From assembly GCA_012295275.1 (NCBI GenBank), contig CM022667.1, positions 8,432,001 through 8,496,000 on the forward strand: a DNA stretch of 64,000 nucleotides, given 5' to 3'. Shown here piece after piece: positions 310 to 64,000 of this stretch. This stretch comes from Chrysomallon squamiferum (lineage: Eukaryota; Animalia; Mollusca). Every line of letters begins with the position of its first letter. The first letter of the stretch is position 1. A program made the translations under genes and the position numbers. The notes beneath the pieces are model-generated. The model was not told the origin of the DNA. It searched no databases and saw only the letters and a program-made list of their open reading frames with translations.

Positions 310-2071
310 ACTCACTCACTCACTCACTCACTCCTTTCCTGACTTCATTTTTAACCAGTTTATTCTAAAGCTGTTTGTATTTACATTATTTGCTGTGGTT
401 TTGATCCCTCAGCCTCCTGCACCACTGGTTAAAGTTGTTATGTCCAACAAGATGTCCGAAACAACATCAACAGACACCAGTGTGAGAAGTCAGACGAAAT
501 CTCAGATGTCCAGAACCAGACCAAGCAGCAGGAAAAAATATCTTCAAGACAGTGATACAGTTAGTGATCATTTTTATACTTACATATAAATAGTGATTGT
601 GTTTACATACACTGTATTATATAAAAAAACAAAGATAGTGATCATTTATATATTTATATTTTATATAAATAAATAGTGATGGTATAATAGTTTATGTATA
701 TTATAAAATAAAAAGCTAATGATCATGTTTACAGATATGTAATTAGAATGTTTATCTACGATTTTCATTGATTGATTTTGTATTAGCAAATTAGTTGTGA
801 CATAAACATTTTGAACTTGTTGTTATATTTTAATATTTCTTGTTACAGAGTCTGGCAGGTGAACTTGATGTAGAAAAACTGTCCAAAATTTTAAGAGGTT
901 ATGGTGAATATCCTGCAAAATACAGGTGACAAAAAATATACTAATAATAAAACAACTATAAACATCAAACTAACAAGAAAATGTAATTTATATTTATTAC
1001 TGCATTTTATTTTTTTTATTATTTGTTTTCAATATTTGTTTTCAATTTTTTTTTAAACCATTTTTTTTTTTTTTTTTTTTTTTTTTGATTGTTTTGTTGT
1101 TTTTCTTAAACATTTTTTTTGTGACATAAAAAATTATAAGATTAACACAAGTCCATGATATTATAGGATTTTTTGTTTAGATTGTTTTTACATTTATATA
1201 TAATATTGATGTTTTATAATATTTTCTTGTCTGGCTTTATTATTAGCAAAGTAATATTTCTAATTACAAACAAATAAAATATGTTTAGGCTATTAATAGT
1301 AAATTCTTAAATACCTGATTTTGATTTCATATGTTTTATATCTGTTACAAATTTCATTTGTTGTTAAGATGTTCATACTTAAATTCTTAATATGCCATAG
1401 CATCTGATTTTTAATTTCATGTGTTTTTTCCTATTATGAAGCAAACTGATAAATAACTGTGTTTGTTGTTAGAATGTTCATCTGGAGGTCTGTGTTGCAT
1501 CTGCCAGAAAACCATGCAGCTTATGGTGCCCTTGTTGACAAAGGGTCACATCCAGCCTACTCAAAACTACACGAAGTTTATCCAATCAAAAGTCGAAAAC
1601 TGCTCAGAGTGTTACAGAGGTAAAGTTAAAAATTATATATATATACATTTAGTAATTGGGCAGCCCATGTTTATAATGAAATGACAAAGAAACTAAACTA
1701 GATAAATAAATAATTAAAAAAAATAATAATAATAAAATAAAAACAACATAATAAAATAAATAACTGCAAAAACTGATGTTGAATATGCACATAGCACTTT
1801 TTAAGTAACATTGTATTTAATTATTTAAGTAGTCAAATCAATTGATTAAAAAGTTTAATTATATATTTAAATGTTTTTTAAATCACTACTGTTATACCTA
1901 GATTCATATTTAGAAATCGATTTTGGTAAAATAAAACTTCTTTTTTTTATTTTATATTCATTAATTTCTAGAAATTATATTTTATTTTAGTTGAGGTTTA
2001 TATTTTTATTTAGATTGATCATTTTAAAATTAAGTTAAAAATTTTGATATTGTTATTATTTATGTATGTAT

Positions 2072-2134
<63 letters not shown>

Positions 2135-3254
2135 TGTTGTCATATTTTCAGAATTCTATCAGCACTTGCACACTGGTCTCCAATATTCGGAGAAACGCAG
2201 TATCTACCAATGTTAGCCTTTCCTTTTGTGAAACTCTTCCAGAACAACCATCTTGTGTGTTTTGAAATCATAGCCACACTTCTAGGTTAGATTAGTATAC
2301 ACATTCTAACCTGATTACCATAAACATTATTTTCTGTTGGTTTTTTTTTTCCATTTTTTTCAGACAAAAATTATTAATAATAGATTGATTTTAAATGATA
2401 GTTATTATTTTAATAGTTTAAAATAAGTGTATTAAAAGTATACAGAATACATAATTTTATTAATCATTTCATATCATTGTAGTTGGCATTTTTCCTTTTC
2501 TTTTCTCTTTTTTTTTTTAAACTAAAATTTCACCTACTGACATAATATTCAAAATACTGATACCATAGTTACTAACAGTCTGTTAATATGCTGCTATATT
2601 TACTATCAGTAATTAAAAAGATTTATAAAAATAATATTCATAACTGTTCTTGAACCTTTTTAATGTACTGATAATTTTTATATGGTTGAATTTAATAAGA
2701 ATTTTTTTTCTTTCTTTTTTAACTACTTTTATCTTTGTCAGTAAACTGGGGCTACCACTGGTTTGAGTATTTCCCCAACCCACCAATCAACATTTTGGCA
2801 ATGATAGAAAATGTGATAGCTCACCATGACCGATACCTGTTACAGCATTTTGTCAAGTACAGAGTGACGTCTGAGGTAAATTCCTACTTTTTCTTCACGT
2901 TTTAAATGTCTTAGAAACACCAGAAATAAAAAAAAATGTTTTATACTTCTCAGTCCCAGTGTTTATTTGGTTCTTGTTATGAGTTTTTGTTTTTGGTAGC
3001 AAAGTAAAAAGTTTATGAGAATTCATTGAGTGTGTCTGTTGTTACTATTATTATTTAGTTCATGAAAAAAACATCTGATTGAACTAAAAATGTGTTTAGG
3101 TTGTTTTTACATGCAATCAAGGTACACGTCAGAAAAAAAGCAAAGAAAAAAGCAGACAATCAGACTCAGTTGGCAAACATTTGCTTTCTTAGATGTTTTC
3201 AGTTTATTTCAAAACAGAACATTAAAAATAAGGGCTGGAAATTGTTTAAATATT

Positions 3255-3297
<43 letters not shown>

Positions 3298-6200
3298 GGT
3301 TTTTTTTTTTTTTCTTTTTAAAAAAAAAAAAAATTAACAAAAGTCCCCCCATCTTTTTTAAAGAAATTTAAAAAAAAAAAGTAATAATACAAAGAGTTAA
3401 TCTTCTGCTTCTGCAGATCATCAGTCAGTGATCTGTCACTTGATCAGAATTCACTGCACAAGCTAATCTAGCTGATCTGTGTATCAGACTAATTACAGGC
3501 TTGATGAGATGATTGCAGACTGATGTGATCAGGTGTCTGTCAGGAGGCTTGGACAGTACTAATTAGTAAAACAAAACAACATGACAGCACATTAATTTTG
3601 TTTTCATTCATTCATTCATGTCACATAAGTTGAATTCTGTCATTGGTGAACACATAATCAGTTGAGTGGAATTAGCTATGTAAGCTACACTGTGATTGGC
3701 CAGTTCTGCAGAGAACAGACAGTTCTGTTGGTTGTGAGCTAATTATGACAGTTTCTGCTCTAGTGTTTGAAAAGTCATTTTTATTGGACAGTTTTTGTAA
3801 TGAACTATATATTTATTTGATGAAAACGTTGGAACATTAGTCAGAGAGATTGACGAATTGTGACAGATCAGAATTCTGGCAGTCAGTTTGTGGTTTAGAG
3901 AGTTGTCTGTTTTTGTGATTTAAAATTTGAAGAAGTGTCATTGTCTTTATTAACCAAATTTATCTTGACAAAGTGGCAGAGTTTTTACTGAATTGTGTTA
4001 CACTGTTTTGTGTTTCAGTAACTCGTATGCTAGAGACAAGTTTCAGTAAAAACTAGATTAATAGTTTACATCAGTGTACAAGTTAAAGTGAATTGAATTT
4101 AAAAAATAAATAAAAAAAAAAGTTAAATTAAAATTCAGGAATGGCATCGATAGTAGACTTGCCAGTGGAGCACAGTAACTTTCCCGGAGGAAGACTGGTT
4201 CAGCTGTCGAGCAATCCGATGTTTTCTGCTCTGCAGCAAACTCTGCTGAGTGAGTGCAGTAAGACTCAGGCTGCAGAACAAGACTGTGGAGTGAAACAGT
4301 TCAACAGTGTGGGCGAGGCGCTGGGTGCCAGCATCGGCCTGTTTGACCAGAGCAGGGAGGAGATTGAAAATGACCCCTGTTTAAACATGAACTCCGCCTT
4401 CGCAGCAGTGCAGGAAGCTAACTTGCTGTCTGAGTTCCGACTGGTCAACGGAAACCCCAAAGTGTCTGAACTGCACCGTTTTTACACGGTCACTGCATGT
4501 ACATAGAGACAAAACGAAGCGAAGAGGTGGACCTGGTCAAGTCCTCGGGACTGGGGAGTTCATCTCTGCAGCAGAAACTTTACAACGTACATGCCAAGTA
4601 CGACAGAGACAGACTGCATCTGACAAACCGCGTCACTTCAAGTCTTCAGCTGCTGAAAGCGTCGATTCCTGTCCTGCCTCCTCACGAGATGTTTCTCAGC
4701 AGATCCAAGTCACGTCAGCTCAAACCGAAAGCCACGGAGCTGATGAACAGGTGGTATGATGACCATGTGGACAACCCTACCCCAACGACGAAGACAAGAT
4801 GATGCTTGCTGACAAAGGGGAGATAAGTCTTGCTCAGGTGAAGGCCTGGTTTGCTAACCGTCGCAACCGAACAAACAACACCAAGCCAAAACGACAGAAG
4901 ATGCAGGTTGAAAAGAAGCTGTTGACAATCTGCACAGAGCTGAAGACAGGTGCAGCAGCAGCGCCGAGGTTGTACGGTGACGTTATCACCCAGCTGTCAA
5001 ACATCGTCAACGGCGCCAACATTTTCAGTCAGAGACAGTTGATGAAAGAAACTCAGGAATCATTCTGAGTTGAAGACAAACAAACACTTCCAGTGTTGTA
5101 TAGTTCTTAGACGTTGTGCTATTTGTTAATAACTTGTTGATTTTAGTGTTTGTATATATCTGATGTTTGATTTTTATGGTTGTATATAGTCTGATGTCTG
5201 TGATGTCGAAACTCTTGTTTTTACCATATGATTAAACTGTGTTTGTTTTCAGATACTAGTTTTGTTCTTATTAATTTCTACACTGTAAAAAGTGCTATTT
5301 ATATACAGAAGTGATTTTTGCAATATCAGTAGATGTCTGTTTATGAATTTTCATATAAATTTTTTGTTAATTAAAAGCATACTGTTTTAACTTTACAAAA
5401 ATATCTCATATAATTTTATAAGTTTCAGTGTGAAACAACTTTGTTATCAGGTTGCTAGTCCAGATCTGACAGGAAACAAAGCAGCAATAAAAGAAAATAA
5501 TTTTTGTTTAGAAAATAAAAACACTCCCCTCCAAAAAAACAAAACATTCCTAAAAATATATATTTTTTTTTATATTAATTTTAATATCATTTTTTTTTTT
5601 TAATTATTTGAATTATTTATGTACAGAAATAAGAAGAAAAAAAACCTCTCATTCCATAAGTTTGTAAATCAATTTTTAGTGATTTTGTTACGTACTGGCA
5701 CTGATGTAGCGACGTGTGATGTTGTATCAAAATGTACTTCTAGGTGTATGCGTGGCCACTGCTGGAGAGTGTTTTCTCCGAGGTGCTCACTAAGGAGGAG
5801 TGGCTGATGCTGTGGGACAACGTGTTCAGCACTCACCCCTCGTTCCTGCTCATGCTGGTCGCAGCCTACGCGATCTGTGCCCGGGGACCCCTCATGCAGT
5901 GCAGGGAACTTGACGACTTCAAAGTCTGTGTTTAAACTCACCACTTTATTTTATTTCATATTATTATTTTATATTGAATTTCTTGAATTTAAAATGTCAG
6001 AGATATTGGAGAAGTTGGTGACACATAGCTAATTTATTTAGAATCAGAGTAACTGTTTTTTTTTTACAAGACCAGTTAAATATATAAATATTTACAAAGT
6101 TAAGTTGTGTGACTTCAGACAGATAAGCAAGTTTATTATTAGTTAATAGCAGTTTTAATCAAATAAGTATGTAATTAATGAAATAAACAACTTGACTGAT

Positions 6201-6903
6201 AATTTTATAAATATGATTGTAGGATAATAGATACGATATTTATATTAATATATTAATTACTATCAACTCTTTCATCTTAACTTCCAGTTGTATTGGGGTA
6301 GATGATTGTCAACAATATGTTTCCATGCTTTGCTCTTTCTGAAAGTTAACATTTAAAAATATTTTCAGTATTTTTTCCACCACCGCAACGCTGTTGATGT
6401 GAAGCAGGTGGTGAAGGAGGCGTACCGCTTGATGGAGTCGACACCCGACAACGTGCACCCCCGCAGACACATTGAAGAGTTCAAACCTCTCACCAAGGGA
6501 CTCTACCCAGTGTTCAACAAATATCCCAAGTTCATTGTCGATTACCAGGTGCAGTAAAACAGTTTTATCAAAAACAACCTCATTTATTGTTGTTTGCCAT
6601 GTAACAGTAAAACATTTCAATCCAGTACAAAGAAATTAATGTTTGATTACAAGATACAGCTAAACAAGAACAGCCAAGTTTATTATTCTTTACCAGTAAA
6701 ATATTTGTGAGGTTTTCATTTTCTTTGATGAATTAGGAAGCAGTGGTACATTTATTTGGTGTAGATATTAGTTAGCATTATCAGTGAAGAGAATATCTCT
6801 CAAACTTGACGTATGAAAAATCTACAGTTCTTTGTGATAAAGAATTTGATACCATTAATTACATAAAACAACAAACCAAAAAAAATAAAAAAGAGCAATT
6901 ATT

Positions 6904-6947
<44 letters not shown>

Positions 6948-9900
6948 TTAATTTTTTTTTTTTAAGGTTCAAGAAAGAGAGCGGATCAGACAAGAAGAAA
7001 TGGAATATTTACGACAGAAGTAAGTGCTTACTTATAGATTAAAAAGATAATGTATGTTTATTACAGGTATGTCACCAGGGAATAAACAGAATATTTTCAG
7101 TTTTTGATTTACATGTTTTTTTTAATTGTTTTTTTAAAGATGTGAATTTACAAGTTGTTATTTAAAAAAAAAAAAATTTAAAGCTACCTCATATTTTATT
7201 GTATTTGTATTACTATCTTTAGTTCACGGTTTTTATTAGAAGACATAGAATTTATTTTATACTGTTGTTTACTTGAAATGTTTGCAGACAGGTGACTCTG
7301 GAAGTTCAGAAGGAGACTTTGAAGAGGCAGCAGGAGGAGGAGGCCTGGTATCGCCAGGAGCATCTGCTGACAGAAGCGGAGGAGAAACGACGCAGGATGA
7401 TCCTAGAGGAAGAACAGAAACTAGTCGATCAGCGAAAACGGTACAATATAGCGTGAACTACACTGTCCATAGAGTGAACTACACTGTCCAGTAGGTACAG
7501 TGTAGAGTTAACTACAGAAAACATCAGTACATGTTCCAAAATAATCTGTTTTGTGTTTCAAGAGTGGCTTGTGATTCACTGAGATATGACAGATTTTAAG
7601 ATCTGTGCTTCTCATCTGTCTTGTTTTCCCATTCTGCCCCTTAAACAGATTTGTCAGTGGTTGAGATGTGTGCTTACTGTTTTAAAGGAAGATACTTTGA
7701 TATTAAATAATAAAGATGTTACATGGAATTGTTACAGCATTTCATTGTTTACTCAAATAAATAATATTTAAAATGTGTTGATAAAAAGTATTCAGTTTGT
7801 ACCAGATTACAATAAATGTAATAATACTCTGTTAGCCTGATAAAAGTGTTGTAAATTGAAAAACCCATCAAAGTTAAGAAAGATGTGATATCTGCAGCTT
7901 TCTAAAATGTGCACACACAGAGAATTCACATGCATTTTGCATCAAGACACGATTATCACTGTCATCTGACAGATTTTTTGAAATAGAATTTCCTGGACCT
8001 ACTGACCACACTTTTGCATATATACTGTGTTTGACTATGAGAATTACTGAAGAAAAAAAAGTACAGAACAGTACTCTATGGTTGTTTATAGAATTTTAAA
8101 TCATGGTTTAACAAGAATATAAAACTGCAGTGTTAAACAATGTTTTGTGTTTTCAGACTGTTTGCGATGAACAGAGAGGTGAAGCTGAAGGAGTTGCAGC
8201 TGCTGGATGCAGCTAGAAGGAAATTCTTACATTTCCAGCAGACGCAGAGAGAAGCTGAGCTGAAGAGACTTGATGATGAGATGCAGAGAAAGGTAAATCA
8301 TTCAATTAACATCTTACTGTGCCACTGAGTCCACACAGGAGTAGACAAAACAGAGTATGTGCTCTTCTCTGTACTTGTTTTATTTGATACTTCTAATAAT
8401 ATGTATTCATGACTATGCATGGTGAATAGATGTTTACAACATTTCCTCTGATAACATTGTGATGTCAAAAATATGTTTGTTTTCTAAGGCTTTGATGAGA
8501 GATCAGGAAACAGAGGCAGCTATTGAGGAGGCAGAGATAAAGAACATGGAACTGAATTTACAGAAGAAGATGTTTGAACAGGTGTGTATGATGTCAGCAC
8601 AGTGATTTGTCAGTGTGACCAGATACAAGTGTTGACTCACTTTTCTTTTTCTCTTTTAAATTAATCTTCTCAACTTTGGCTATGAGTGTTCTTAGATTAT
8701 TTACAGAAAGCAGTCTTGTTTGAACTCAGGTTAAGTTATTACACTGAACAGTTAATGTAGTGGTTACTAAAACTTCTCTTTATCTAACACTTAAGCTGAA
8801 ATGCCAAGCCTTAAGCTCAGGTTCTAAAAATAACTTGCTCTTCTTCAAAGTTCGATGAATGTTTAAAAATAAACAAATCTAGATATATATAAACATCTCA
8901 TTTTGAAATTGAAACTGTATAATTATACTTGTCATTTCTATCCTACTTCATTCATCATCATCATCATCATCATTATGCATATATAATGTCCCCTTGTTAA
9001 GCTAAAACCTTGTCTTGTTGATTCCACATGTTCCTATCATGCACTGTCCTCTACCAGGATTTCCCACAGTTTGATGTGTTTAATGTTTTATTGTCAGGAA
9101 CTGTTCAGGGAGTACAGTATTATCTTGCTACATGATTCTGTAGTTACATGCTTAATGTTTAATTACTAGGAACTGTTCAGGGAGTACAGTATTATCTTGC
9201 TACATGATTCTGTAGTTACATGTTTAATGTTTTATTACTAGGAACTGTTCAGGGAGTATGCTGTAGTTGATGTTTTATTACTAGGAACAGTCTGAGGAGT
9301 GAACAGGACCTGTTAGATGTTTTAAGCAGAAGGAGCTGGAAGACAGAATACAGGAACTGAGACTGCAGGCATCCAGTCTGAGAGAACAGGGACCTGCACC
9401 GCAAGCAGAAGGAGCTGGAAGACAGAATACAGCAGAGACTGCAGGCATCCGAGAGAGAGAGGGACCTGCAAGTGAGAAAGGTGAGAGAACAGTAACAACA
9501 CAAACACCTGCACAGTGAGAGCAAACTTTAGAGAGTAAAAGATTAAATGTTAACATTCCATGAGAAATCTGAACATAAAAACATTGATAATAAATAATAT
9601 GTTATTGTTGATCTTCATTGAGAATCACTCTGATATGTTTTTACACAAACATTTATGAGAATTACTCTCTGATACATTGAAGGAAATGTAGCCAGGACTG
9701 AATTTAGAAATGTTCAGCCCTGTTTGACAAGATTTAACGGACAATAAGAACTTCACTTTGCAACAATTTGTTAATGTTAATTAGATTTAATAATTACATA
9801 AATATAAATATGAAATTTTAACAAAAATAGATCCATTCCGAGATTCTGCAAAATTTATGTTTACTGTTTTTGAGTTTATGCCTAAGTAAAGTTCAGAGTG

Positions 9901-10293
9901 TAGAGAACTGTTGTAAAACTGGTTTTTAAAATGATGAACTTTGTGCTTGGTTCAGATGATGTCTCAGAAGCTGGCGCTGGCATCACAGAGGAACATTGAC
10001 ATGTGGGCTCACAAAGAGGTGAACCACAGACACCACGTGGAGGACTGTGAGAGAGAGGCGAGACAAGAGCAGGTAGGACTACTCCTTGTTTAGCAGTGAG
10101 CTTAACAGCTTGTCAGTCATGTTATTAGTAACAAGAGCAGGTAGAACTACTCCTTGTTTAGTAGTCAGAACTACTCCTTGTTTAGCAGTCAGAACTACTC
10201 CTTGTTTAGCAGTCAGAACTACTCCTTGTTTAGCAGTCAGGTTAACAGCTTGTCAGTCTTCAGTAACAAGAACAAATATATAATAACAATATG

Positions 10294-10333
<40 letters not shown>

Positions 10334-11677
10334 ACGTGCGTGCATTTGTGCATATGTTTATATACTGATGTTGGCATGCAGTCTTTGATACAGTGAATAT
10401 ATTGTCTTTGACAGCTTGCAAAGATTCATGCACAGAATCGAACACTGGAAGAGGAAGTTCAGAAGTTGATGAAGAAATGCCAGTTAGAGAGGGTAGGTAA
10501 CTCTGTACTTAATACATTTTTGAACTAGAGTTATCCTTTATCTTATCCTTAATAATTGTATTATATATGAATTTAGTTGTAATTTCACACTTGACAGTAT
10601 CAGAAATACTGTTATATTATTCAAACAGAAGATAAATTAACTGGCAGAGAAGAAATGATACTTTTTTTTATTGGTAGATATCAAATAATTCCAGCCCAAC
10701 TAAATTATTTTCTATTACTTTTACAGATTATTTTATTAATAATTAATAACAGCTGAATTTCTATGTAGTAATCTTTTAAAAATATGTCACCTTATTGTTG
10801 ATGTTTCTTTTGAACTTTGTAATGAGTCTTCTCATCAGGAAAAGTGAACACTGTAGAGCTATTAATTTTTTTTTTATCTCACCTCTTTCTGAAATACTTG
10901 ATGTTCTCTTGATGTGTGTATTAAGTGTGAAGCAGAAGGAAATTGCACCAGTTACAAAGGACTCATTTCGTCTTGAATACTCAGTCACTGTAGAGTTATT
11001 ACGTTCTGAAGTGTTGGCTGTTCCGCTGACGTGTGTGAGTTAATGTTTTGCAGGAGGAGGAAACAGCCGCTGGTTACCAAGGGCTGCAGAGACAACAGAC
11101 TGACGAGTCAAACAACTGCTTACTTCATCACATGGAAGGGGAGATCACTGCAGACCTGAAACATGTCAGAGACATCCATGACGATGTCATAGATGCTGTA
11201 CAACGTGAGTGATGTGTGTATGACGTCTGTCTCATACTGAGCTCTGATTTCAGGGACTATGTCTGATCAGAGTGATTAGATATTTGTAATTTGTCTGATA
11301 TTTTAAGGGTTTAGTTTATCAGTTTTATAACATTTAGTCTTTCATACAAAGATTTACCTGTTTTTTATTTATTTCAGAATAAATCTGATAAATTTTCTTT
11401 TCTTTTCTTGATTCACTGTTTTGTTGTGATTGTTCTTATCATTATAATCACTGTTAGTGTGGTTAACAGAATCATCCAAACGGCTTCGTTCTTTTTTTTA
11501 ATTAATGAAAATTATTTTTTTGTTGTATAGTGTCAGTATTACCTGTTATTTTCACAGGACATCAGACACCATACTTGAACAACAGTCACCTGCTTGATCC
11601 TCTACAGACTGAGGACTCCCTACTTACAACAAAAGGTGATTGTTGATGTAAACTATGTCTTACATTCATTTTTTTTT

Positions 11678-11714
<37 letters not shown>

Positions 11715-12297
11715 CTTTGATTTTAACAAAGATTTATTTCTGTTTATATTTAGATGTGGTAGGCTACATTAAGAATAGAATATAAAATAGAATACAATGA
11801 GAATATATAGTTTATTATTTATTTCTTAAAATTTAAAAGTAGATCAATATTGTGTGAAATTTTTATGAAATTTGTTTTGGTATTTATTTTTTTTAAAACA
11901 AAAGAAAACTGCATTGATTTTTCTTTCAACTAAATATTTAATGATTTTATTGTTTACTTTTATTTTTTTGTTGTTGATTTTGATTTTTTTTTTAATTTTT
12001 TGTTGTTGTTTTTTCTTTGTTTCAGTCAAAAGTACATTTTGGAAGTAATTAAAGAAAATCATTAAACAAATTAAAATGTCAATAATAAGGCTTAAAGCTA
12101 TGTAGCACTGTATACTGCAGAACAAATCTAAAAAAGACATTTGTCTTGTTGTTTGTTTAGTTTCGTTTGAGAGAAGTCGGAGAGCTTTTGAAGAGCAGGA
12201 AATGGCGCTGTTAGACGGAGTACGACAGCTGCGACAAAAGATGGCAGTGGAAAACAGAGCTAAGAAAGCTCCTCCACCATTACGACCAGAGGACTAA
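1..12297 (+). CDS. TBC1D31: TBC1 domain family member 31 (WDR67), 5'-truncated at the window edge. Exons: 1-122, 413-559, 849-925, 1473-1619, 2152-2285, 2742-2875, 5744-5923, 6369-6548, 6967-7019, 7288-7440, 8157-8292, 8489-8581, ~9098-9480 (disrupted), 9956-10072, 10415-10492, 11054-11204, 11558-11635, 12161-12297
   Basis: Hand-spliced GT-AG exons keep phase throughout. Last WD40 blade (VSVSPNGRHVVAVMDDG), then TBC domain (LRGYGEYPAKYRMFIWRSVL, LAHWSPIFGETQYLPMLAFPFVKLF, WFEYFPNPPINIL, YAWPLLESVFSEVLTKEEWLMLWDNVFS, YPVFNKYPKFIVDYQ), then a long coiled coil. TAA stop at 12295-12297. Confidence 0.93.
413..559 (+). CDS. TBC1D31: TBC1D31 exon (linker)
   Basis: CTCAG acceptor; PPAPLVKVV...QDSDT; donor GTTAGT at 560; phase 0/0. 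Confidence 0.8.
849..925 (+). CDS. TBC1D31: TBC1D31 exon (TBC start)
   Basis: SLAGELDVEKLSKILRGYGEYPAKY(R); phase 0/2. Confidence 0.9.
1473..1619 (+). CDS. TBC1D31: TBC1D31 exon
   Basis: MFIWRSVLHLPENHAAY...YPIKSRKLLRVLQ(R); phase 2/2. Confidence 0.92.
2152..2285 (+). CDS. TBC1D31: TBC1D31 exon
   Basis: ILSALAHWSPIFGETQYLPMLAFPFVKLFQNNHLVCFEIIATLL; phase 2/1. Confidence 0.92.
2742..2875 (+). CDS. TBC1D31: TBC1D31 exon
   Basis: NWGYHWFEYFPNPPINILAMIENVIAHHDRYLLQHFVKYRVTSE; phase 1/0. Confidence 0.92.
3420..3870 (+). promoter_or_regulatory. Putative promoter of the nested TALE homeobox gene
   Basis: TATATAT at 3806-3812 and Inr-like TTAGTC at 3837-3842 (about 30 bp apart). Reverse CCAAT boxes (ATTGG) at 3642, 3695 and 3783. 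Six TGACAG/CTGTCA sites (3433, 3537, 3582, 3637, 3746, 3861). Several TAATTA homeodomain cores. Confidence 0.5.
4141..5068 (+). CDS. Intronless TALE-class homeobox gene (spiralian SPILE-like), nested in a TBC1D31 intron; two -1 frame breaks near 4488 and 4776 (sequencing error or young pseudogene); ~309 aa if repaired
   Basis: ORFs 4141-4506, 4497-4802 and 4799-5068 join if one base is restored at each break. This gives KSRQLKPKATELMNRWYDDHVDN-PYP-NDEDKMMLADKGEISLAQVKAWFANRRNRT: a TALE PYP loop plus helix 3 WFANRR (Ala50). Confidence 0.88.
5744..5923 (+). CDS. TBC1D31: TBC1D31 exon
   Basis: VYAWPLLESVFSEVLTKEEWLMLWDNVFSTHPSFLL...DDFK; phase 0/0. Confidence 0.93.
6369..6548 (+). CDS. TBC1D31: TBC1D31 exon
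   Basis: YFFHHRNAVDVKQVV...PLTKGLYPVFNKYPKFIVDYQ; phase 0/0. Confidence 0.93.
6967..7019 (+). CDS. TBC1D31: TBC1D31 exon
   Basis: VQERERIRQEEMEYLRQ(K); donor GTAAGT; phase 0/2. Confidence 0.9.
7288..7440 (+). CDS. TBC1D31: TBC1D31 exon (coiled coil)
   Basis: QVTLEVQKETLKRQQEEEAWYRQEHLL...DQRK(R); phase 2/2. Confidence 0.9.
8157..8292 (+). CDS. TBC1D31: TBC1D31 exon (coiled coil)
   Basis: LFAMNREVKLKELQLLDAARRKFL...MQRK; phase 2/0. Confidence 0.9.
8489..8581 (+). CDS. TBC1D31: TBC1D31 exon (coiled coil)
   Basis: ALMRDQETEAAIEEAEIKNMELNLQKKMFEQ; phase 0/0. Confidence 0.85.
9098..9480 (+). other. TBC1D31: Scrambled TBC1D31 exon: 72-bp tandem copies of acceptor plus exon start, and a partial duplication of the exon body
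   Basis: AG|GAACTGTTCAGGGAGTA (ELFREY) at 9098, 9170 and 9242. AAGCAGAAGGAGCTGGAAGACAGAATACAG occurs twice. Only 9391-9480 (DLHRKQKELEDRIQQRLQASERERDLQVRK, donor GTGAGA) reads cleanly. Confidence 0.75.
9956..10072 (+). CDS. TBC1D31: TBC1D31 exon
   Basis: MMSQKLALASQRNIDMWAHKEVNHRHHVEDCEREARQEQ; TTCAG acceptor, GTAGGA donor. Confidence 0.75.
10063..10270. repeat. Minisatellite with 24-bp unit AGAACTACTCCTTGTTTAGCAGTC (x4), plus a duplicated donor site
   Basis: Direct reading; CAAGAGCAG|GTAG occurs at 10073 and again at 10141. Confidence 0.85.
10415..10492 (+). CDS. TBC1D31: TBC1D31 exon
   Basis: LAKIHAQNRTLEEEVQKLMKKCQLER; phase 0/0. Confidence 0.75.
11054..11204 (+). CDS. TBC1D31: TBC1D31 exon
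   Basis: EEETAAGYQGLQRQQ...VIDAVQ; TTGCAG acceptor, GTGAGT donor; phase 0/1. Confidence 0.72.
11558..11635 (+). CDS. TBC1D31: TBC1D31 exon
   Basis: HQTPYLNNSHLLDPLQTEDSLLTTK; phase 1/1. Confidence 0.68.
12161..12297 (+). CDS. TBC1D31: TBC1D31 last coding exon
   Basis: SFERSRRAFEEQEMALLDGVRQLRQKMAVENRAKKAPPPLRPED*; the VRxLRQ motif resembles the vertebrate C-terminus. Confidence 0.85.
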
Positions 12298-13168
12298 AAA
12301 TAACAAAAATAACTTACTCCAATCCAAGGAAAACAGGCCTAACTAGCTTACTCTTCATTATTTGATAACAAGATAAAAAAAATTAAAAAACTAGTTTTTT
12401 ATACCAGATACCAGGAAGAGAAAAAGAAAACACATTTTTGATGCTTTCTGAACCAGTCAGAAGAATTAATCTCGGAAAAATGTGAAAGTTAAAAAAAAAG
12501 ATATTTTTGTTTTAAAAACAAGATCTTCATTTTCCAGATAACCTTTAGAACGTTTCTGATTCATTGTTATTTCATAGCTTAAAGACTTGACCGTAGAAAC
12601 AGTTTCTGAAAGAAAAATGTTTGTGAGAAATGTTAGCTGGAAGTTAAGTCTTACCAAGGACTAAAGACTTTTCATCTTTGTAGTTTTGAAGATGTTTTTA
12701 TAAACACAAAGAATGTAATAAACCAATTTAATGTCTGCCTTATCAAGAGTAAACAATTCCATTTAACAACCAAAGATTTTTTTTTTTTTTTTTTTACAAA
12801 TTTTACTTTATCTCAAGTTCGGTTTTAATCACATGAATTGTGAACATGCAGATCTTTAAAAGTTGACTATCTCTTTTTCTTATAGCAGTCCACAGTATGT
12901 AAGTTAATGATGTGGACCTGTTTATTTTTCACTTTTTTCAACTTTAGTATTATTAAATAACGTCTTCTATCAAGTAATGTAAGATGAGTCAGTGTCGTGA
13001 TAAATAGTTTTGTTCAAAATGAGTGAATATAACCAAATACATAACTTTTTATAAATCTACGTTATTTAAAGGTAACAATGCGTTACAATAATACTAAAAA
13101 TGTAAAATAGTTTGATTTTTGTACAGGGTTAATAAGCACAAGAAATGCTTGTAAATTGATCTGTTTAA

Positions 13169-13174
13169 AATAAA
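13169..13174 (+). terminator. Candidate TBC1D31 polyadenylation signal
   Basis: AATAAA followed by a T/GT-rich tract, where the CpG-poor domain ends. Confidence 0.35.
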
Positions 13175-14284
13175 ACCAGTTTATTTATTATTTTGTTTTC
13201 TGTGCAGTGTTTGCAAGCATTAACATTTTTTTACATGAAAGGATTTTAATATCTGTATATTTGTATTTTGTCTTCAAAGAACCTTGTATAGGTCGGAATG
13301 TGCACAGATGCACGCACATACAATTGGATATTCAATTATTTTGTTCCTTTGCGCATTAAAACATGAATTTGCTTTCACACTTTCACGTCTGCGTTTCCAC
13401 GTGCACCATTTACACAGACACAATGTCCCCAACTTGAGACTATTTATGTTCTGACTTACCGGAAGTTACTCGAATTTTAATTTGTGAAATATTACCTAGT
13501 ATTTTCTATTTCACTTGTAATGTAATATAACGGTACAAGACAACTTACATTAAGGTAATGAAAAACAGTTTTTGTTTATCTTTTCTGATATGATTTTTAT
13601 CGAGATCGTAGGTACGAAGGGACATAACTCGCAAAGTCTGCACGTAGGATTAACTCTGAAATGCGCCATCTATGGGTGATCCATGTCGTTCGTCAGCCTG
13701 GTATTTCAGCTGGAAAATTATCGTAAATGTATAGTATAAATATTTAACTAATACTTTGGAAGTAGTAAATACAGTTTAGAGTTGGTGTTCGTATTTCATC
13801 TTTCCAAAAGTATTTTCTGATATGTTTTCTGCGTAGTGTTTGTTTAAAAGCCATAACGGGATTTTGCCAAATCAAATAAATAAAGAAAAGGTAAAAGTAT
13901 TTAATCTTGGTTTTTGATCAGTTCAGTGGCTTGTTTGATAACGTTTTAATTGTTTTGTTTTTTTATAAATTTATTTATTTATTCATTTTTTATTTTATTT
14001 TTTTATTATTTACATATATTCTGCATATCAGTGGTTTTCATCTTTAAATTGTTGTACAGATACATGCTTTGCATTTGTTTAATGAAAATGTGTGTTTAAA
14101 TTAATAACACATCAGTGAAGTATTTGTATCTGTTAGTATGTTTACGCTGAGAAGTTGATACCGGTTAACACTGTAGTATAGGACATATAGGATGCACAGG
14201 AACTACGGAAACACTGTTATTAAACAAGCTGTCATTACATGTTATTTCGTGTTATGTGGCGACAAATGTAGCAAAGAAACTGTA

Positions 14285-14521
14285 ATAACGAAAGAGCACG
14301 CTTAAGTCGCTAGTCATCGGCTATTTGTTTTTAATTAGCAGTAAGGTTTCTGTTGTACGCACATTCCCATAGGCAGGACTGTACATACCACAACCTTTTT
14401 ACAATTCTTGAGGAGCAATGACTGGAACGAAAACAGCTCAGTGGGTGCATCAAGAATGATCGATCTGACGTCACATCACACCAAGCGCAGACATTGTACT
14501 ACTAAGCTACGTCTCTCCCCC
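14285..14521 (-). mobile_element. Degenerate tRNA-derived SINE
   Basis: Minus strand starts GGGAGAGACGTAGCTTAGTAGTA (A-box-like), then AGATCGATCA (B-box-like). The body ATTAGCAG...CATACCAC...CTGGAACGA...AGCTCAGTGGGT resembles a gastropod SINE family as I recall it (not searched). Confidence 0.6.
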
Positions 14522-15000
14522 TATGTGACTGTAATATCAAATTGTTTCCTGTTCCAACAAGACCACAGAATTCGTTTGCCAGCGGCAGTTATAAAAATTT
14601 AATAAATAAATAAACAAACATCTAATTCCTAAACATTAATATTAAAATGTCTCAGAAGAACAAGAACGTGCAGAAAAAAAAAAAAAATAAATAAATAAAT
14701 AAATAAGTAGTAGCAGTAGAAGTAATAGTGTCAAAGTGAAATAATGAACTACAAGCATGGAATTTTTATACAACTATTTTTGTTGCATAATGAGTAACCA
14801 ACATCTGTTAAATCCTATTCTCAGTTATTATTTTAGTTAATTTTAAAATTTATTTTATTGTTTTCAAAATACATGACTCGTTCCAGATTTTGAACAAATT
14901 CTCGACAGCACAATGAATTTAATATGTTATATTAATATTCATTGTTAAATTAGCATAACATATTAAAAATTATCAATCAGTTCTGACATACGGACTTTAT

Positions 15001-15042
<42 letters not shown>

Positions 15043-15258
15043 CTCTCACTCTCTCGTTTTGTTCTGTGCAATATTTCGAATTTAATGCTACTTTTTTTAT
15101 GTATTATCATTAAACTCACTAATTAAACTCACTAATTACATTAATTAATAACGACATATGATGATGATAGATGACGGGCACTAATTTTATAATCTAAACA
15201 TTTTTACAACACTAAGGGTGGATAATTATAACGTAATAAAAACGATGACGTATGCTTA

Positions 15259-15303
<45 letters not shown>

Positions 15304-16182
15304 TATTATTATTATTATTATTATTTTTTTTTTTTTTTTACAGATTTTATTATTTCTTAATTCTATTCTATTATTAATAGGCAATAACTAAAGAGTTTAA
15401 TAGCCACTTTCCTGCCACAGTATTTATTAAATATTTGTTGAAAGCTGAAGTCCATGTAGATTATACATATACATGTACTCTTAACGATATGCTGTAATAT
15501 TATTGTTGCATTACCACGGCGATATTTTAAGAATCTACCTTGTTCATCCAAATAAGAACAAACTTTTGTGATAAAATTTGAATCACTAACAAAAGGAAAC
15601 TGATTACTTCATTGAACCATCTGTTATGAGATGTGTCTTTAGAATATAATTACCTGTTAAAAGTATTCGTATACGTTAAAAAAAAATAGTTCCTTGATAC
15701 TGACTTATTAATTATAATTATATCACTACATCTCCAAATATTTCTCACCCCAGTAATAATTTTAGTCCAGTTATTAGAATATGGATGTAATCACCAAAGA
15801 ATAAGCAGTTACATCGGGGAAAAAAGAGGGGAAAAAACACACATACACACACGCACACAATTTTTTAAATAAAGAAAACAAACCCAATTTGTTTGTACGA
15901 ATTAATTTTTCTCTGAAGATAGCTAAAGGGGGATTACTACGTTTTACTTATAAACAATCACCCATCGTCATCAAGAAACAAGGGAAGTAACTACGGTTAG
16001 CATTGAATAGGCGTATGTAAACAAATGTCTTGTCATTTATTTATTTTTTAATTATTATTATTTGAGTTTTTTCATTTTAATTCAAAAGCAATAAATTGTG
16101 TCCATAATTCTGTCATAAAAATTACCTTAGTTTACGAAAAATGACTACTAACAGTTTTACTTTAAGAATAATAAACAGATAG

Positions 16183-16213
<31 letters not shown>

Positions 16214-17078
16214 AATAATAATAATAATAAAGTATATATATATATATATTATATCATTCTTTTGTACACAAAACATTTTGAAACGGTATATTTAAATTAT
16301 TTATTTATTTTAAAATCATCATTGTCATTATTAATGTATGTATGCATTCGACCGCCTATTCCCGAGCACTGGTACGGTACATAATTAATATTAATTTAGC
16401 TCCGATGTGTATGTATCTGTTTCATAGTTCATTAGCATTGGAAACTCCTCCTGGTTATTTTGGTGCTGTATCAAATTAAAAATAAAATTAAACATGTATC
16501 ATTTATGACTCTGCCTTCTTTCACTGTGTTCTTGTTGTTGTCATTGTTTTTGTTTTATTGTTGTTGTTGCTGTTGTTGTTATTATTATTATTATTATTAT
16601 TTGTTTTCTAAACACAAATTTCTTATTGAAGAAAAAACTAAAAAAAAAAATAACGTAACTAGCGTGTCAGGATGCACGGAAGCGAACATTTTCTAAATTT
16701 ACTATTTTATTACTATTACCACTACTATTGCCATTACTATTACAACTATTAGACTACTACTGCTATTGCTGCGTTTGTTTTTGTTTTTGTTTTGTTTGTT
16801 GGGTTGGTGTGTTTGTTTGTGTGGGGTTGAACATGTAATAAGTAACAGATGTATTTGATATGTTTTCGTTAATTAATTATTTCTTTTTTTTCTTTTCTTT
16901 TTTTTAATAAAATGCATTATTTAATAAATGCATTATTTTAAGTTTTTGGATATTTATCTTAGACATATATATATATATATATATAATAAAATAAAAGGAA
17001 AAGAAAAGAAAACCGAAAAAAGAAAAGTATGTGAATCTATTCGCGAGGACGGGTTTTTCAGTATTTCTCTTTTGTAAT

Positions 17079-18800: not shown

Positions 18801-18971
18801 GTTTTCATTTGCCAGTTTCTCATTCGCGGTCTCTCACCACAGTTATTTTCCTCTTTCACTCTCTCTCTGTTTTTATATATATAGATATATATATATATCT
18901 ATATATAGCTCGTAAGCGAAGAAAACTTGGCGTCTCTCCGGCTGAGCGAGTAGTGAAAAGCGTGTCTACCT

Positions 18972-19553
18972 ATGTCAAAGACTGAGAAGTTCGGCTGCTT
19001 GAGCACGGTCAGGATGGTTACGAGTATCGACGACATCCAGTCTCTGCGCTTTTGGAAAGCTATCGCTGCCGAGTTTTTGGGCACGTTTCTCCTCGTGTTC
19101 GTTGGATGTGGATCTACTATGTCCATCAACGACTCGGCGCCGCCACAGACTCCTCAGATCGCTTTCTGCTTTGGACTCAGCATCGCGACGATAGTGTGGA
19201 GCATCAACCACATCAGCGGCGGCCACATCAACCCGGCCATCACCATCGCTCTGTTTGCGACGAGGAAGATCAGTCTCGCTCGGGCTGTCTTCTACGTCAT
19301 CTTCCAGCTCGTCGGCTCCATCGTGGGTGCGGCGCTGCTGCTGGGCGTCACCCCCGACTCCAGGGTCGGCACCCTCGGGATGACGAGGCTCGCGCCCGGG
19401 ATGGACGCTGGAAAGGGTCTGGGGGTCGAGATCTTTATCACCTTCGTCCTCGTTTTCACCGTGTTCGCTTCGCTGGATTCCAGAAGAAAGGATCTGAACG
19501 GTTCAACTCCTTTGTCCATCGGTTTGTCTGTGACGATGTGTCACCTGTTTGCT
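18972..19553 (+). CDS. Aquaporin exon 1 (TM1-TM5, first NPA)
   Basis: MSKTEKF...MCHLFA; donor GTAAGT at 19554. Confidence 0.95.
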
Positions 19554-19774
19554 GTAAGTATTTTTTTTTTTTTTTACTTCGATTTCAGTACGTGTCTTAT
19601 TTTGATTTATAACAATATGTAGCTCAAAACGCTCCTGAGGTAGATAAAGTATATGATTAATATATAATGTGATTATTACCGTGAAAACTTTTGTCTAGCC
19701 AAAGACGTACAAACGCACACATAAACAGACTCAAAACCACATTTATGTGCCGTATCTTTCTTTATTTTAATGTC

Positions 19775-31377: not shown

Positions 31378-32666
31378 AACTGTCACAAAACAAATAGTAC
31401 CTCCTCGTTATAATCTCGGTCAAGGGAGAGCACTGCGATGGAACTATAATATTAAAACAGACGAATTCATCTCGATTAGATCCAACACTTGTATTTCATA
31501 AAGTAATAATGTGCATAAATTTTCTAAATATTTACATAGTAGCAGGTGATACGTATTAAGATTCTTATTAATTTATTCAAATGCTTTTATTACTCCCACT
31601 GCTACTACAACAACAACAACTACTACTACTACTACAAGAACTACTATTGCTATTATAACAACTACTCATATTACTACATTCTGCTATCATTGCTACAACA
31701 TGTTACAGACATCACGTGCCTTCATGGTAGGTGGCGCAACTGTAGTTCTATATTTCTGTTCCTACTATTACAGCTACTACTACTATTACTACTATAACAT
31801 TTTCTTATTTCGCTATTTATTTATTTATTTATTTATTTATTTATTTTCAGGTTCCATACACTGGTTCCAGCATGAACACAGCAAGAAGTTTCGGCCCGGC
31901 TATGATCATGTGGAAGTGGGGCGACTTTTGGGTAAATTATCATCTCTAACTTCAAAAACAAAGTCGCTCAATTACGTGCATCATTTAAAAAGTTAATGCA
32001 GCTGGCGCCAAATCAAAAGAATAATATTTAATTTCACATTCATTAATACTTTTGCGTGTTCGTTATCTTAATTTCAGATAACAGACGTAGCTAATGCAAA
32101 AAAAAAAAAAAAATCAGTTTGTTGTTGCACTTTTAAGTATGTCTTTTGTGATACGAAAAAAACAGTGTAAACATATTCTGTATATTCTGTTTTTTATGTT
32201 TGAGTTTTCCCGGTTTATCATAATTAATAAAGACGAGCAAAATAATTAAGACCAGTAAAACTAACGAAGCGAGAGACGCCAACCTATGTTTTTCTGTCTA
32301 AAGAATGTAACTGTACCAAGACAAAGCATATATATATGTATATTTAAACTTCGTAACTTTAAACCTAAATTAGCAGAAGACGATAAACAAATAACTGTGT
32401 TATTTTCGTCTGTTCAGATTTACACGGTCGGACCGATCCTGGGCGGGCTTATCGCCGGACTGCTGTACGACACGCTGTTTGCCATGAACGCCTCGCTGGC
32501 CAAGGCCAGAGCCTGCATGCTGTCCAGTGACTACGACGACGACAAATACGACGCACAGAAAACCAGAATCCGGATACTGGAAGAGTGCGGGGACCAGGAA
32601 ACGATTAAACTGAAGGAAGCGGAAGATGGAAAAGCCGGTTCGGTGGAAGAGCAACCTACTAATTAA
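18972..32666 (+). CDS. Classical (AQP1/AQP4-like) aquaporin, 303 aa; exons 18972-19553, 31851-31931, 32418-32666
   Basis: AEFLGT, HISGGHINPAIT, VEIFITFVLVFTVFA, GSSMNTARSFGPA, WIYTVGP motifs; all junctions are phase 0; 12.3-kb first intron. Confidence 0.95.
20795..20900. repeat. Short minisatellite, ~23-bp unit GTACTGTGTATTCTGGTACTGT(T/A)
   Basis: About 4 diverging copies read directly. Confidence 0.7.
23285..23610. repeat. Old, diverged minisatellite (~35-40 bp; AAAATACAACAT..GTTCT motif)
   Basis: Recurrent AATACAACAT/AAATTAAAC...TTCT spacing with strong C-over-G skew. Confidence 0.45.
24081..24134 (+). repeat. 54-bp element, copy A (inverted partner of 31702-31755)
   Basis: AAATACAGAACTACAGCTGCGCCACCTACCATGAAGGCACGTGATGTCTGTAAC; 52/54 identical to the reverse complement of copy B. 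Confidence 0.9.
26905..27101. mobile_element. Non-autonomous Tc1/mariner-superfamily (pogo/Tigger-type) MITE
   Basis: 22-bp TIRs CAGTGGTACCTCGACTTACGAG / CTAGTAAGTCAAGGTACCATTG (3 mismatches). TA on the left flank; the right flank runs into (TG)n. Confidence 0.8.
31702..31755 (-). repeat. 54-bp element, copy B
   Basis: Reverse complement of 24081-24134; ends 95 bp upstream of aquaporin exon 2. Confidence 0.9.
31851..31931 (+). CDS. Aquaporin exon 2 (loop E, NTA motif)
   Basis: TTTTCAG acceptor; VPYTGSSMNTARSFGPAMIMWKWGDFW; donor GTAAAT. Confidence 0.93.
32418..32666 (+). CDS. Aquaporin exon 3 (TM6 and C-tail)
   Basis: IYTVGPILGGLIAGLLYDTLF...EEQPTN*. Confidence 0.93.
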   Translation: MYTVGPILGGLIAGLLYDTLFAMNASLAKARACMLSSDYDDDKYDAQKTRIRILEECGDQETIKLKEAEDGKAGSVEEQPTN

Positions 32667-39526: not shown

Positions 39527-40953
39527 GGTGTTTGTGTGTGTTTGTGTGTGTGTGTGTGTGGGTGTTTGTGTGTGTTTGTGTGCACATGCATCTATATGTA
39601 TTTCAGTGAATATGTGTATGTATCTGTCTATATATGTGACTGTAGGTATGCATATTTGTGTGTGTGTCTAAATGTATATATGTATGTCTCTGTGTTGTTA
39701 TCTGTGTGTACTTGTGTGTGAATGTTTGTATATGTTTGTGAAACATGTGTGTAAGCATTGTTAAAAATGAAACAAAATCATGCTGACAAATTCTGCAATA
39801 TTTTTAAAAATCAATACATTCAATGAATATAATATCTGTATTTCAAACCATTATAATTATTATTTACCAAATAATCATATATAAAAATAAAAAAATTAAT
39901 TGTAAGAATGCAAATATATTTAACTCAGATGTTTGAAACACAAATAATTTCAACAAATGCTTCAAATGTAACATTCAGCAACAAATAACAATTAATAAAA
40001 ACTCACCTTGTTTCAGAGAAGCGTAGTCAGAGTTTGATACATTGTCACATGACCCAGTCACATGATCACAGAAACAACCCTGACTGTCGTCACACAAGCA
40101 CACACTTTGACATCTGACACCAAAATATCCGTATGGACAAACTGAAATTAACAAATTAAATTCCTCTGTCACTATTAAGTATTAGCAGATAGAAAACACT
40201 TGTAAGAGCAAGGTATTAATATATCATCTTAAATTTTATTCTGTATTCCAGCATTTTTGCTTTATAAATCAAAAATTTCTGCTATTTATCATTCTGTTTA
40301 TCTTATTTCTTTTTTTAATAATAATTTGTTTATTTTATATTAATATTTTTAATTTCACAAAGCCACTGAATATAAAAGAAATAAATTAAAAACTTAGCAT
40401 CAATTATTTGTGTCGTTTCTTTAAAATATTTTTTACAGTAAACCATTATTCTTGTTTATGACAAAATCTAAATTCAATAAAAAAATTAATTTAAGAAAAC
40501 AACTGAATTTAAATGAATTTCTGAGTAAATTAATTCTCCTAATCATGAAACGACTTTACTTCTGTTGAAATATAAAATTTTAAACTGAGTTCTCTGCTCT
40601 CTTACTTGACTGACAAAACTGTCCGGTATACCCTGCCCTGCATGTACATGCACCCGTGACGTGGTCACACACACCCCCATTCTGACACGCACACTGCTGT
40701 GTACAGTTCTGACCAAACCTCCCAGAGCGACACACCAGAGAACAGTTGTAACCATGCCAACCAGGATCACACAGACATCCCTCTGAAACAACAACAGATA
40801 ACCACCATCATGTATCTGTAACCATGCAACTATCAGCAAGGGACTTTTTTTTAAATAGATCCTTCCCATAAACTGGAATGCATATATAAAGGCCTTTACA
40901 TAAAACTTTCTTCAGACAATGACTGAAATTGTTAACAGACTTATATATATATA

Positions 40954-45431: not shown

Positions 45432-46747
45432 CTATCTGTCTGTTGGTCTGAATGGTAAGTTATTTCTGATTCTCCTACAGAACGTATTTCTTATAAAGAT
45501 AAAACTTGATATTTCTAACTCTGGCTGATTTCTTACCTCGACCTATTTCATTAAGAGAAAGAACACATTTATTGCCCTGGCAATTTTTTTTTTAGAGTCA
45601 TAAGGTATTTCTTATCCTGACATATTTACTGTAGAGACATAACATCATCTTTCTTATTGTTTGTACTATTCATATTTATTATCACAACATAAGATGGTAT
45701 TTCTTATCCAGACTGTATGGATGTTTCATATTATATATTACCTGTCATAGTATTAGTTATACTCAACATAAACAAAACATTTATAATATTTATATCTGTC
45801 ATATTACTAGTTATACTCAAATATTTATCAAACATTTATACCTATGGTACTAGCTATATTGAAAATACACAAAACATTTATACTATTTACACCTGTCATG
45901 GTACTAGTTATACTGAAAATACAGGCTAGAGGAGCTCTGCAAGCTGAAGCTGTTTCTTACCGAGACACTGTCCAGTGTGTGTGTTGAAGAATCCTGCGTT
46001 GATGGCCAACCTGCAGCCAGCCTGTCTGCTGCTCACTTTGACCGTCGCTCTCGTCCCCCCACCTTTCCTACACGAACCTGGTGCCAGAGGTTCTAACACC
46101 GACAACGTCTTCAGCGGATCCCTGACCACTTCGTAACGCAGATTAACAACCCATTTGTTCCAGCCGTCGCTGACCTCGTGCAGGGAATGTTTAGAAACAA
46201 GAAAGGGAAGAATCGCGCTGTCTGATTTGTGTGCTTTGTGCCTGGAGTGGGTCACATTCCCGTATTTTACGTTCTGACATTCTCTGATGTGTCGATTTCT
46301 TCGAAGCTTTGGTCCATGGTGTCCAATGTAGGGAGTCAGCATGTCCATGCCATCAAGTGAATTATATCTGTAAGAAATTTAAAATTAACTCAACTGGCTG
46401 GAAAAAAATGGTTTAAAGATGTCTGCATGGTTCCGTATGATCTCTAAAAATTATAGGATTGCCGTATAAATATTTTTAAAGATATTCTTTTAAATAACTG
46501 TAATCTGTTGTTTAAGGAATTTGAAGAGGTTAATATTTCATTATTTCAAAGATGAAGATTTCTTTTTCAGTTACAGATGGGTTGAAATGAAATGAAAATT
46601 TGAACTTATGTAAAATAGTCACACAAATCAGGAGTCTTAATTTTTTACATAAATATAATTTTTCAGAATGTTGTAGTTTTACATGCACATGTAGATATAT
46701 GCTTACATGAATACATGCAGACATATGCGCACGCACGCACTCACACA

Positions 46748-63850: not shown

Positions 63851-64000
63851 CAGAACCTCCAACCAATGAGTTAGTAGTAAGAAAGCTTTAAAAAAAAAAA
63901 AAAATGTTTATTACTTGTGTATCTGTTGTGTGACTTGTTAACCAAGGTGTTGATTTACTGTTGGTGGTAAACATCTCTGCTTCATTTGCATGCTTGAAAA

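Follow-up and report, generated by a model that had tools for sequence, protein, structure and literature searches.

The stretch of DNA analysed here (the window) comprises 64,000 nucleotides of Chrysomallon squamiferum contig CM022667.1. It carries on the forward strand, on which all features lie unless stated otherwise, the 3′ two thirds of TBC1D31, a gene reportedly linked to ciliogenesis, as the title of a paper has it. A tblastn search with TBC1D31 of Gigantopelta aegis gave 18 exon-like matches between positions 3 and 12291, with 91–100% identity around the TBC domain. One exon (2741–2875) ends with the residues VTSE in phase 0 and the next (5744–5923) begins with VYAWPLL; the intron between them (2876–5743, GT..AG) measures 2868 nt and is the longest of 17, the other 16 spanning about 196–809 nt by approximate exon ends. 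Inside this intron, and on the same strand, lies a second gene (the guest), whose coding part is a single exon at 4141–5068. Both the same-strand nesting and the intronless coding part had been proposed in an earlier note on this DNA and are borne out. In contig 23 of RNA run X7, position 5923 is spliced directly to 6369, and the 1965 letters that precede 5742 fall outside 3400–5741. From this contig we infer that the host mRNA is spliced across the guest; since splicing would remove the whole guest from the host mRNA, both genes could work from one locus.

Elsewhere, the window contains an aquaporin (MIP family) gene, with matches at 18957–19622 (first coding exon, E 1e-53) and 32265–32666 (last exon, weak), and a tandem array at 62308–63854 made of about 36 copies of a 45-nt unit (89% matches, with higher-order periods of 86 and 217 nt). 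Two exon-like ORF ends on the reverse strand (45926–46378 and 40543–40911) had no Pfam match at E 0.01; one of them is cysteine-rich, and one bears what we take to be a NAGPA-type motif. A transposon origin of the guest was considered and rejected, as no transposase family was found among the window pieces with Pfam. A second copy of the guest was not found within the window.

The guest is written in three ORF pieces (4132–4506, 4470–4802, and 4763–5068), the third of which matches Homeobox_KN (Pfam, E 7.9e-11). When one unknown base is added at each of the two frame breaks, 4141–5068 becomes an ORF of 930 nt encoding 309 amino acids with a single, terminal stop, so that the earlier reading of the three ORFs as one protein of about this length holds. 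An N-terminal helix motif conserved in the SPILE D clade occupies residues 19–43 (4195–4269; 42.5 bits with a profile of 20 homologues, and visible in the alignment). It is followed by a modified PADRE region at residues 83–177 (4387–4670; 108.6 bits, E 1.7e-33), predicted to form a three-helix bundle whose helices have high pLDDT in the model of the homologue P0001, by a TALE homeodomain at residues 187–249 (4698–4885), and by a D-clade C-terminal region of two helices at residues 250–296 (4886–5026). The homeodomain reads ...WYDDHVDxPYP...QVKAWFANRRNR, with the three-residue loop extension (PYP) of the TALE class, helix 3 QVKAWFANRRNR, and alanine at position 50. Thus, the Ala50 TALE homeodomain and the helical block upstream of it, both noticed previously, were recovered, the latter as the PADRE-like region.

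The frame breaks themselves did not survive comparison with short-read contigs. One C is absent behind position 4486 (4484–4488), and one base is absent in a run of C (4774–4778). Seven of the ten sequencing runs listed contain part of the stretch; X1–X4, from two studies, and X5, from a third, are DNA-like short-read runs of organism A. The contigs of X1–X4 have an additional C behind 4486 and an additional base at 4774–4777; that of X5 has an extra C at 4774, and its additional base across 4486 was judged from the record length. The extra base is therefore present at each break in all five DNA-like organism-A runs covering the stretch. For instance, both haplotype contigs of X1 over 4401–4517 hold 118 letters on 117 places, and both haplotype contigs of X4 over 4655–4807 hold 154 letters on 153; in X2, the first extra base is listed at a depth of 2 of 4 only. 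Because five runs of one and the same organism show the additional base at each position in their short-read contigs, both breaks are assembly errors and not features of the organism. If the assembly was built from one of the runs X1–X5, as may be the case, this reading would only gain by it. In the joined frame there are at least 21 coding differences, and 18 of the 21 listed are synonymous and 3 non-synonymous (pN/pS 0.047; binomial P 8e-8 for an expected synonymous share of 0.28 under transition weighting). The guest is under purifying selection. In addition, a contig of organism B (run X9) matches 4731–5055 with 50 differences and 5 gaps, and probably represents an orthologue.

A search with the middle ORF piece yielded a single protein, P0001, and a search with P0001 yielded 23 proteins, 21 of which are full-length relatives. 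The named relatives include the Nipponacmea 'Spiralian-TALE-D homeobox protein' as well as mollusc proteins called PBX-like or extradenticle-like. With P0001 the guest protein shares 67% of its residues, and with NfSPILE-D 49% over 298 amino acids. In a tree of 35 full-length D-like proteins (P0022 and P0023 excluded), the guest joins P0001 (100/100), NfSPILE-D (99/96), and two abalone proteins (95/91). The homeodomain phylogeny that the earlier note had called for, made from 260 homeodomains with no named PBX, MEIS, IRX, or MKX rows, places the guest in a group of 36 rows (all 35 D-labelled rows and one other) with an SH-aLRT of 88, under the starred threshold, its nearest rows being P0001 and NfSPILE-D. 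Three profiles made from 20 D homologues including NfSPILE-D and leaving out P0001, one each for the N-terminal motif, the helical region upstream of the homeodomain, and the C-terminal block, all score the guest with the D group; on the C-terminal block the guest reaches 81.1 bits and the highest-scoring non-D protein 39.6, and the score of the upstream region refers to the D-homologue profile, not to the published PADRE alignment. Pattern scans of genome contigs (128 matches) and viral contigs (137 matches) contained no relatives. The 20 clusters named include no named D-clade protein of heterobranch snails, chitons, or cephalopods, a sample too small to speak for a loss in these groups.

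In the accessible portions of PMC8524836 and its supplement, to which all statements cited from this source are limited, the D clade is described as single-copy in five species, conserved outside the homeodomain, provided with a modified PADRE domain, and maternally expressed. NfSPILE-D is listed there as PADRE-positive, and three homologues of the guest (CAC5404865.1, XP_022344456.1, and XP_021352393.1) are labelled D-clade. Among the D-clade homeodomains in the supplement are some from two vent snails and from Lottia, two of these given as coordinates without a gene model, so the guest homeodomain may already be catalogued there. PADRE was defined, and early expression of oyster TALE1 reported, in PMC5322547 (accessible portion). 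As far as PMC6118893 was accessible, its TALE-XVIII unites NfSPILE-D with genes of annelids and brachiopods, and its TALE-II includes CgTALE1; the limpet and bivalve D genes were later merged on sequence similarity (PMC8524836). Judged by its sequence, the guest is the orthologue of the known single-copy spiralian SPILE-D. The proposal of a SPILE-type TALE gene thus stands, and that of a product of lineage-specific expansion is to be given up, since the guest groups with a single-copy clade that includes NfSPILE-D. Likewise, the idea that annotation overlooks this gene on account of its frame breaks needs rewording: the copies of other molluscs are annotated, but under PBX-like or extradenticle-like names, and the breaks belong to the assembly.

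Like NfSPILE-D of the limpet (BAW32718.1; TALE-XVIII of Barton-Owen et al., 2018), the guest has about 300 residues and one Ala50 homeodomain. With the D clade as a whole (MvSPILE-1, CgTALE1, PfTALEHD8; the bivalve members being TALE-II) it shares the modified PADRE region and the N- and C-terminal blocks, but it has R after Asn51, where K is commoner (4 versus 29 of the QVKAWFAN homeodomains counted), and a longer linker from the first motif to PADRE. The SPILE A/C, B, and E genes are also spiralian-restricted TALE genes of early cleavage, with a PADRE-like region in A/C and most B members (PMC8524836, accessible portions). The guest differs from SPILE B (TALE-IV), which has two homeodomains, by its single one in 309 residues; from SPILE E (TALE-III), which has no PADRE, by its PADRE-like region; and from the multi-copy, zygotic SPILE A/C by its D-type flanks. 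As to PBX/extradenticle, MEIS, PKNOX, and TGIF, the common TALE fold and about 40% identity are confined to the homeodomain, whereas the helix-3 residues differ and a PBC/MEIS N-terminal domain was undetected in the guest.

The structure model of P0001 (mean pLDDT 69.5, pTM 0.40) contains three confident helices at residues 129–219, the homeodomain at 240–289, and two C-terminal helices. It aligns with Meis2 and Exd (Z 10.8 and 10.5; rmsd 1.1 and 1.2; 55 and 58 residues aligned, respectively), and fold searches matched TALE structures by the homeodomain only. For the PADRE-like region, feature comparison gave no usable Atlas match and structure matches were helical and sub-threshold only; VIA-align returned helical bundles of a generic kind (at best Z 9.5 with an rmsd of 3.5 and 87 aligned), a measure uninformative for such bundles. 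The homeodomain is predicted to bind DNA. The N-terminal domains of PBX and MEIS are helical, and by analogy with these the PADRE-like bundle, together with the C-terminal helices, probably provides partner or dimer surfaces. Among the more distant proteins, P0193 (460 aa) groups with a D-like homeodomain of Owenia and scores 59 bits for the PADRE-like region, but is longer; several representatives of the set P0160, P0162, P0165, P0179, and P0193 have 4–10 matched homeodomain-like stretches.

Accession numbers generally follow the order of genes in the genome. Eight named molluscs with both SPILE-D and TBC1D31 records were compared on this basis, and in five of them the two accessions adjoin. 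The host comes directly first in Haliotis rufescens (XP_046367086/087), Mizuhopecten yessoensis (XP_021352391-392/393), Ostrea edulis (XP_048752581/582), and Crassostrea virginica (XP_022344455/456). In Mytilus coruscus, TBC1D31 is split into two half-models (864 and 866) with SPILE-D (CAC5404865) interleaved; the first stops and the second starts at reference residue 558, the position of the host intron in the window. In Haliotis cracherodii and Argopecten irradians both genes are on one chromosome, judged by sequences of identical length, with non-adjacent accessions, and Crassostrea gigas is not comparable, its records coming from different annotation releases. The expectation of a homeobox in the orthologous intron of other molluscs is therefore supported by the five species and left at the level of the chromosome in two. 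Furthermore, a D-clade protein and an exon call for TBC1D31 occur together, paired by identical size, on each of three ENA contigs (2,129,677, 1,329,537, and 778,293 in size), and six of the 11 partial TBC1D31 models checked (P0061, P0127, P0117, P0123, P0124, and P0130, from Batillaria, three Mytilus species, and Argopecten) break at residue 557/558, in five species. Accession order and sequence size thus point to nesting in other species, most strongly in M. coruscus. Among the loci L001–L006, neither tblastn nor profiles found TBC1D31 exons, L001–L003 (2.6–3.6 kb) being too short to reach them. Taken together, SPILE-D has likely resided in the host intron since gastropods and bivalves split, and the shared location supports a single orthology group for the D genes of both classes.

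The nesting of SPILE-D in TBC1D31 was not found in the openly accessible literature searched, and 'TBC1' and 'nested' are absent from the two supplements of PMC8524836 examined. The gene itself is of a known kind, and its location in the TBC1D31 intron is the new part.

A second host was encountered at locus L004 (20.7 kb), where an intronless D-like ORF (9930–10883, P0156) lies on the same strand inside an intron of VPS16. The nested pair spans 1006–16924 on the forward strand, and the ORF stands between consecutive VPS16 exons, with Vps16_N positions 347–391 upstream of the ORF (E 2e-12), 388–409 downstream (E 0.095), and further Vps16 matches on both sides; the intron extends from about 5729 to 14151 (8.4 kb) and has GT..AG ends. 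P0156 falls outside the mollusc group (97/94) in the full-length tree, among long branches including Owenia, and L004 is probably from an annelid or similar organism. The coding region is intronless in the window and in L001–L004, and likewise in C. virginica, where 903 nt encode 300 amino acids. An intronless coding part is a trait of a retrocopy; no parent gene was identified, and poly(A) or target-site traces would have eroded. Since the intronless form is found in two hosts, introns would have been lost before at least one of the two insertions took place; a move at the DNA level then accounts for the location no less well than retroposition. The retroposition into TBC1D31 that the earlier note had suggested thus found no support.

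A candidate promoter or enhancer lies at 3400–3900, with six TGACAG/CTGTCA, three TAATTA, and three CCAAT motifs, a TATA-like TATATATT at 3806–3813, and an initiator-like TTAGTC at 3837–3842; a candidate 3′ UTR extends over 5069–5520, with AATAAA at 5486 and 5514. TGACAG is known as a TALE binding site, and 3400–3900 holds the densest TGACAG/CTGTCA cluster of the window, possibly reflecting input from TALE factors or autoregulation. Such a cluster arose in 1 of 2000 shuffles and ranked top of 635 windows, figures to be read with the choice of region and motif after looking; it is absent from L001–L004, which have one site each per 1 kb. CCAAT boxes cluster upstream of the gene in L001–L003 (7 of 9–10 sites each). 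A strong acceptor-like sequence occupies 4001–4018, 120 nt upstream of the SPILE-D ATG and directly followed by TAA, and a donor-like GTAAGC is found at 3680. RNA covers the guest coding region in two contigs, 4315–4475 (161 nt) and 4812–5081 (270 nt), at a depth of 2–2.7. They come from X7 and X6, non-embryonic-looking libraries, and could derive from DNA or host pre-mRNA, so that they give a weak hint of guest transcription. The guest shares with same-strand nested genes of introns in general the intronless coding part and poly(A) signals of its own inside the host intron, and differs from them in being a developmental transcription factor, apparently kept in one intron across two mollusc classes.

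We then weighed other explanations of the locus. With two frame breaks in the window, the copy of this individual could be taken for a frameshifted pseudogene or a null allele. However, both breaks are single-base losses at C positions that the contigs of five runs do not have, the joined frame shows no premature stop and a strong synonymous bias, and the D clade is single-copy in all five species tabulated in the accessible portions of PMC8524836, which makes this reading very improbable. NCBI names of the type 'pre-B-cell leukemia transcription factor 4-like' would make the guest a diverged paralogue of PBX/extradenticle, a view just as hard to sustain. Indeed, the top match among solved structures is the PBX1 homeodomain (E 1.3e-18), but that match is limited to the homeodomain, position 50 is Gly in PBX1 (WFGN) versus Ala in the guest (WFAN), and homologues with such names have the same accessions as those classed D-clade in PMC8524836. 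Moreover, no PBC-domain Pfam match was found in the window pieces, whose splitting lowers the sensitivity of the search, or among the best 25 of 38 families of the 21 homologues. A real, intact, and selected SPILE-D orthologue is, in our judgement, almost certain.

How this orthologue is expressed, and why it stays where it is, leaves more room for alternatives. The host transcription unit could express SPILE-D as an alternative last exon, by splicing from the donor at 2876 or 3680 to the acceptor at 4018 and polyadenylation at 5486/5514. The pyrimidine-rich sequence ending at 4018 resembles the host acceptors, orientation is the same here and in L004, and the location has been retained over a long evolutionary span. 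On the other hand, a phase-0 host donor joined to 4018 runs into a stop at once and would leave SPILE-D a poorly translated downstream ORF, the TATA-like site at 3806 argues for a separate start, L001–L004 have no AG acceptor just before the ATG, and two RNA runs, with nil cover there and hence little weight, contain no joint into 4018 or 4138; we consider this arrangement improbable. More likely, the guest is a regulator of cleavage stages that is supplied maternally, as its orthologues are, and has a promoter of its own. As for the location, the nesting may be real and old but neutral, a compact intronless gene having landed once and remained in place since any move would disrupt the host gene. 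This receives slightly better than even odds: a relative in VPS16 means that TBC1D31 is not required, and no conserved non-coding sequence was found between the window flanks and L001–L006. It is compatible with an old nested SPILE-D under its own promoter and competes only with a functional link to the host. Two unrelated hosts, both on the same strand, would be a notable coincidence if insertion were random, although only two contexts were read as DNA. A rather doubtful idea is that SPILE-D genes travel repeatedly as same-strand passengers in housekeeping-gene introns (of TBC1D31 in gastropods and bivalves, of VPS16 in another, probably annelid, lineage), using oocyte transcription or open chromatin of the host for maternal loading; functional coupling of SPILE-D to its host is unlikely to a similar degree, and the benefit from host germline expression suggested in the earlier note found no support. 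If the recurrent-passenger idea were true, a regulator of fate in spiral cleavage would have changed hosts and kept its nested way of life.

Our preferred reading, to which we give a probability of about 0.8, is that of an intact nested SPILE-D at an old location, transcribed from its own promoter and loaded into the egg. SPILE-D is maternally expressed in limpet and mussel, NfSPILE-D is confined to four animal-pole blastomeres at 16–32 cells, and a function in quartet specification is ascribed to NfSPILE-A to D (PMC8524836, accessible portions, the last citing Morino et al., 2017). The intact single-exon gene would have been in the TBC1D31 intron since the ancestor of gastropods and bivalves. 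Its mRNA, likely made from its own promoter, would, extrapolating from these orthologues (PMC8524836), be loaded into the egg and then become confined to micromeres of the animal pole, with the protein helping to specify quartet fate there.

The orthology of spiralian TALE genes is notoriously cryptic, and a shared TBC1D31 intron is an independent marker that favours the merger of the limpet and bivalve D genes once placed in TALE-XVIII and TALE-II. The same address offers a simple route by which SPILE-D can be located, or its absence recorded, in the genome of any mollusc, and it explains an annotation trap, namely the TBC1D31 models cut at the host intron in several assemblies and the two published D-clade entries given without a gene model. 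Finally, with VPS16 as a second host, one can put to the test why a maternal gene lives in introns.
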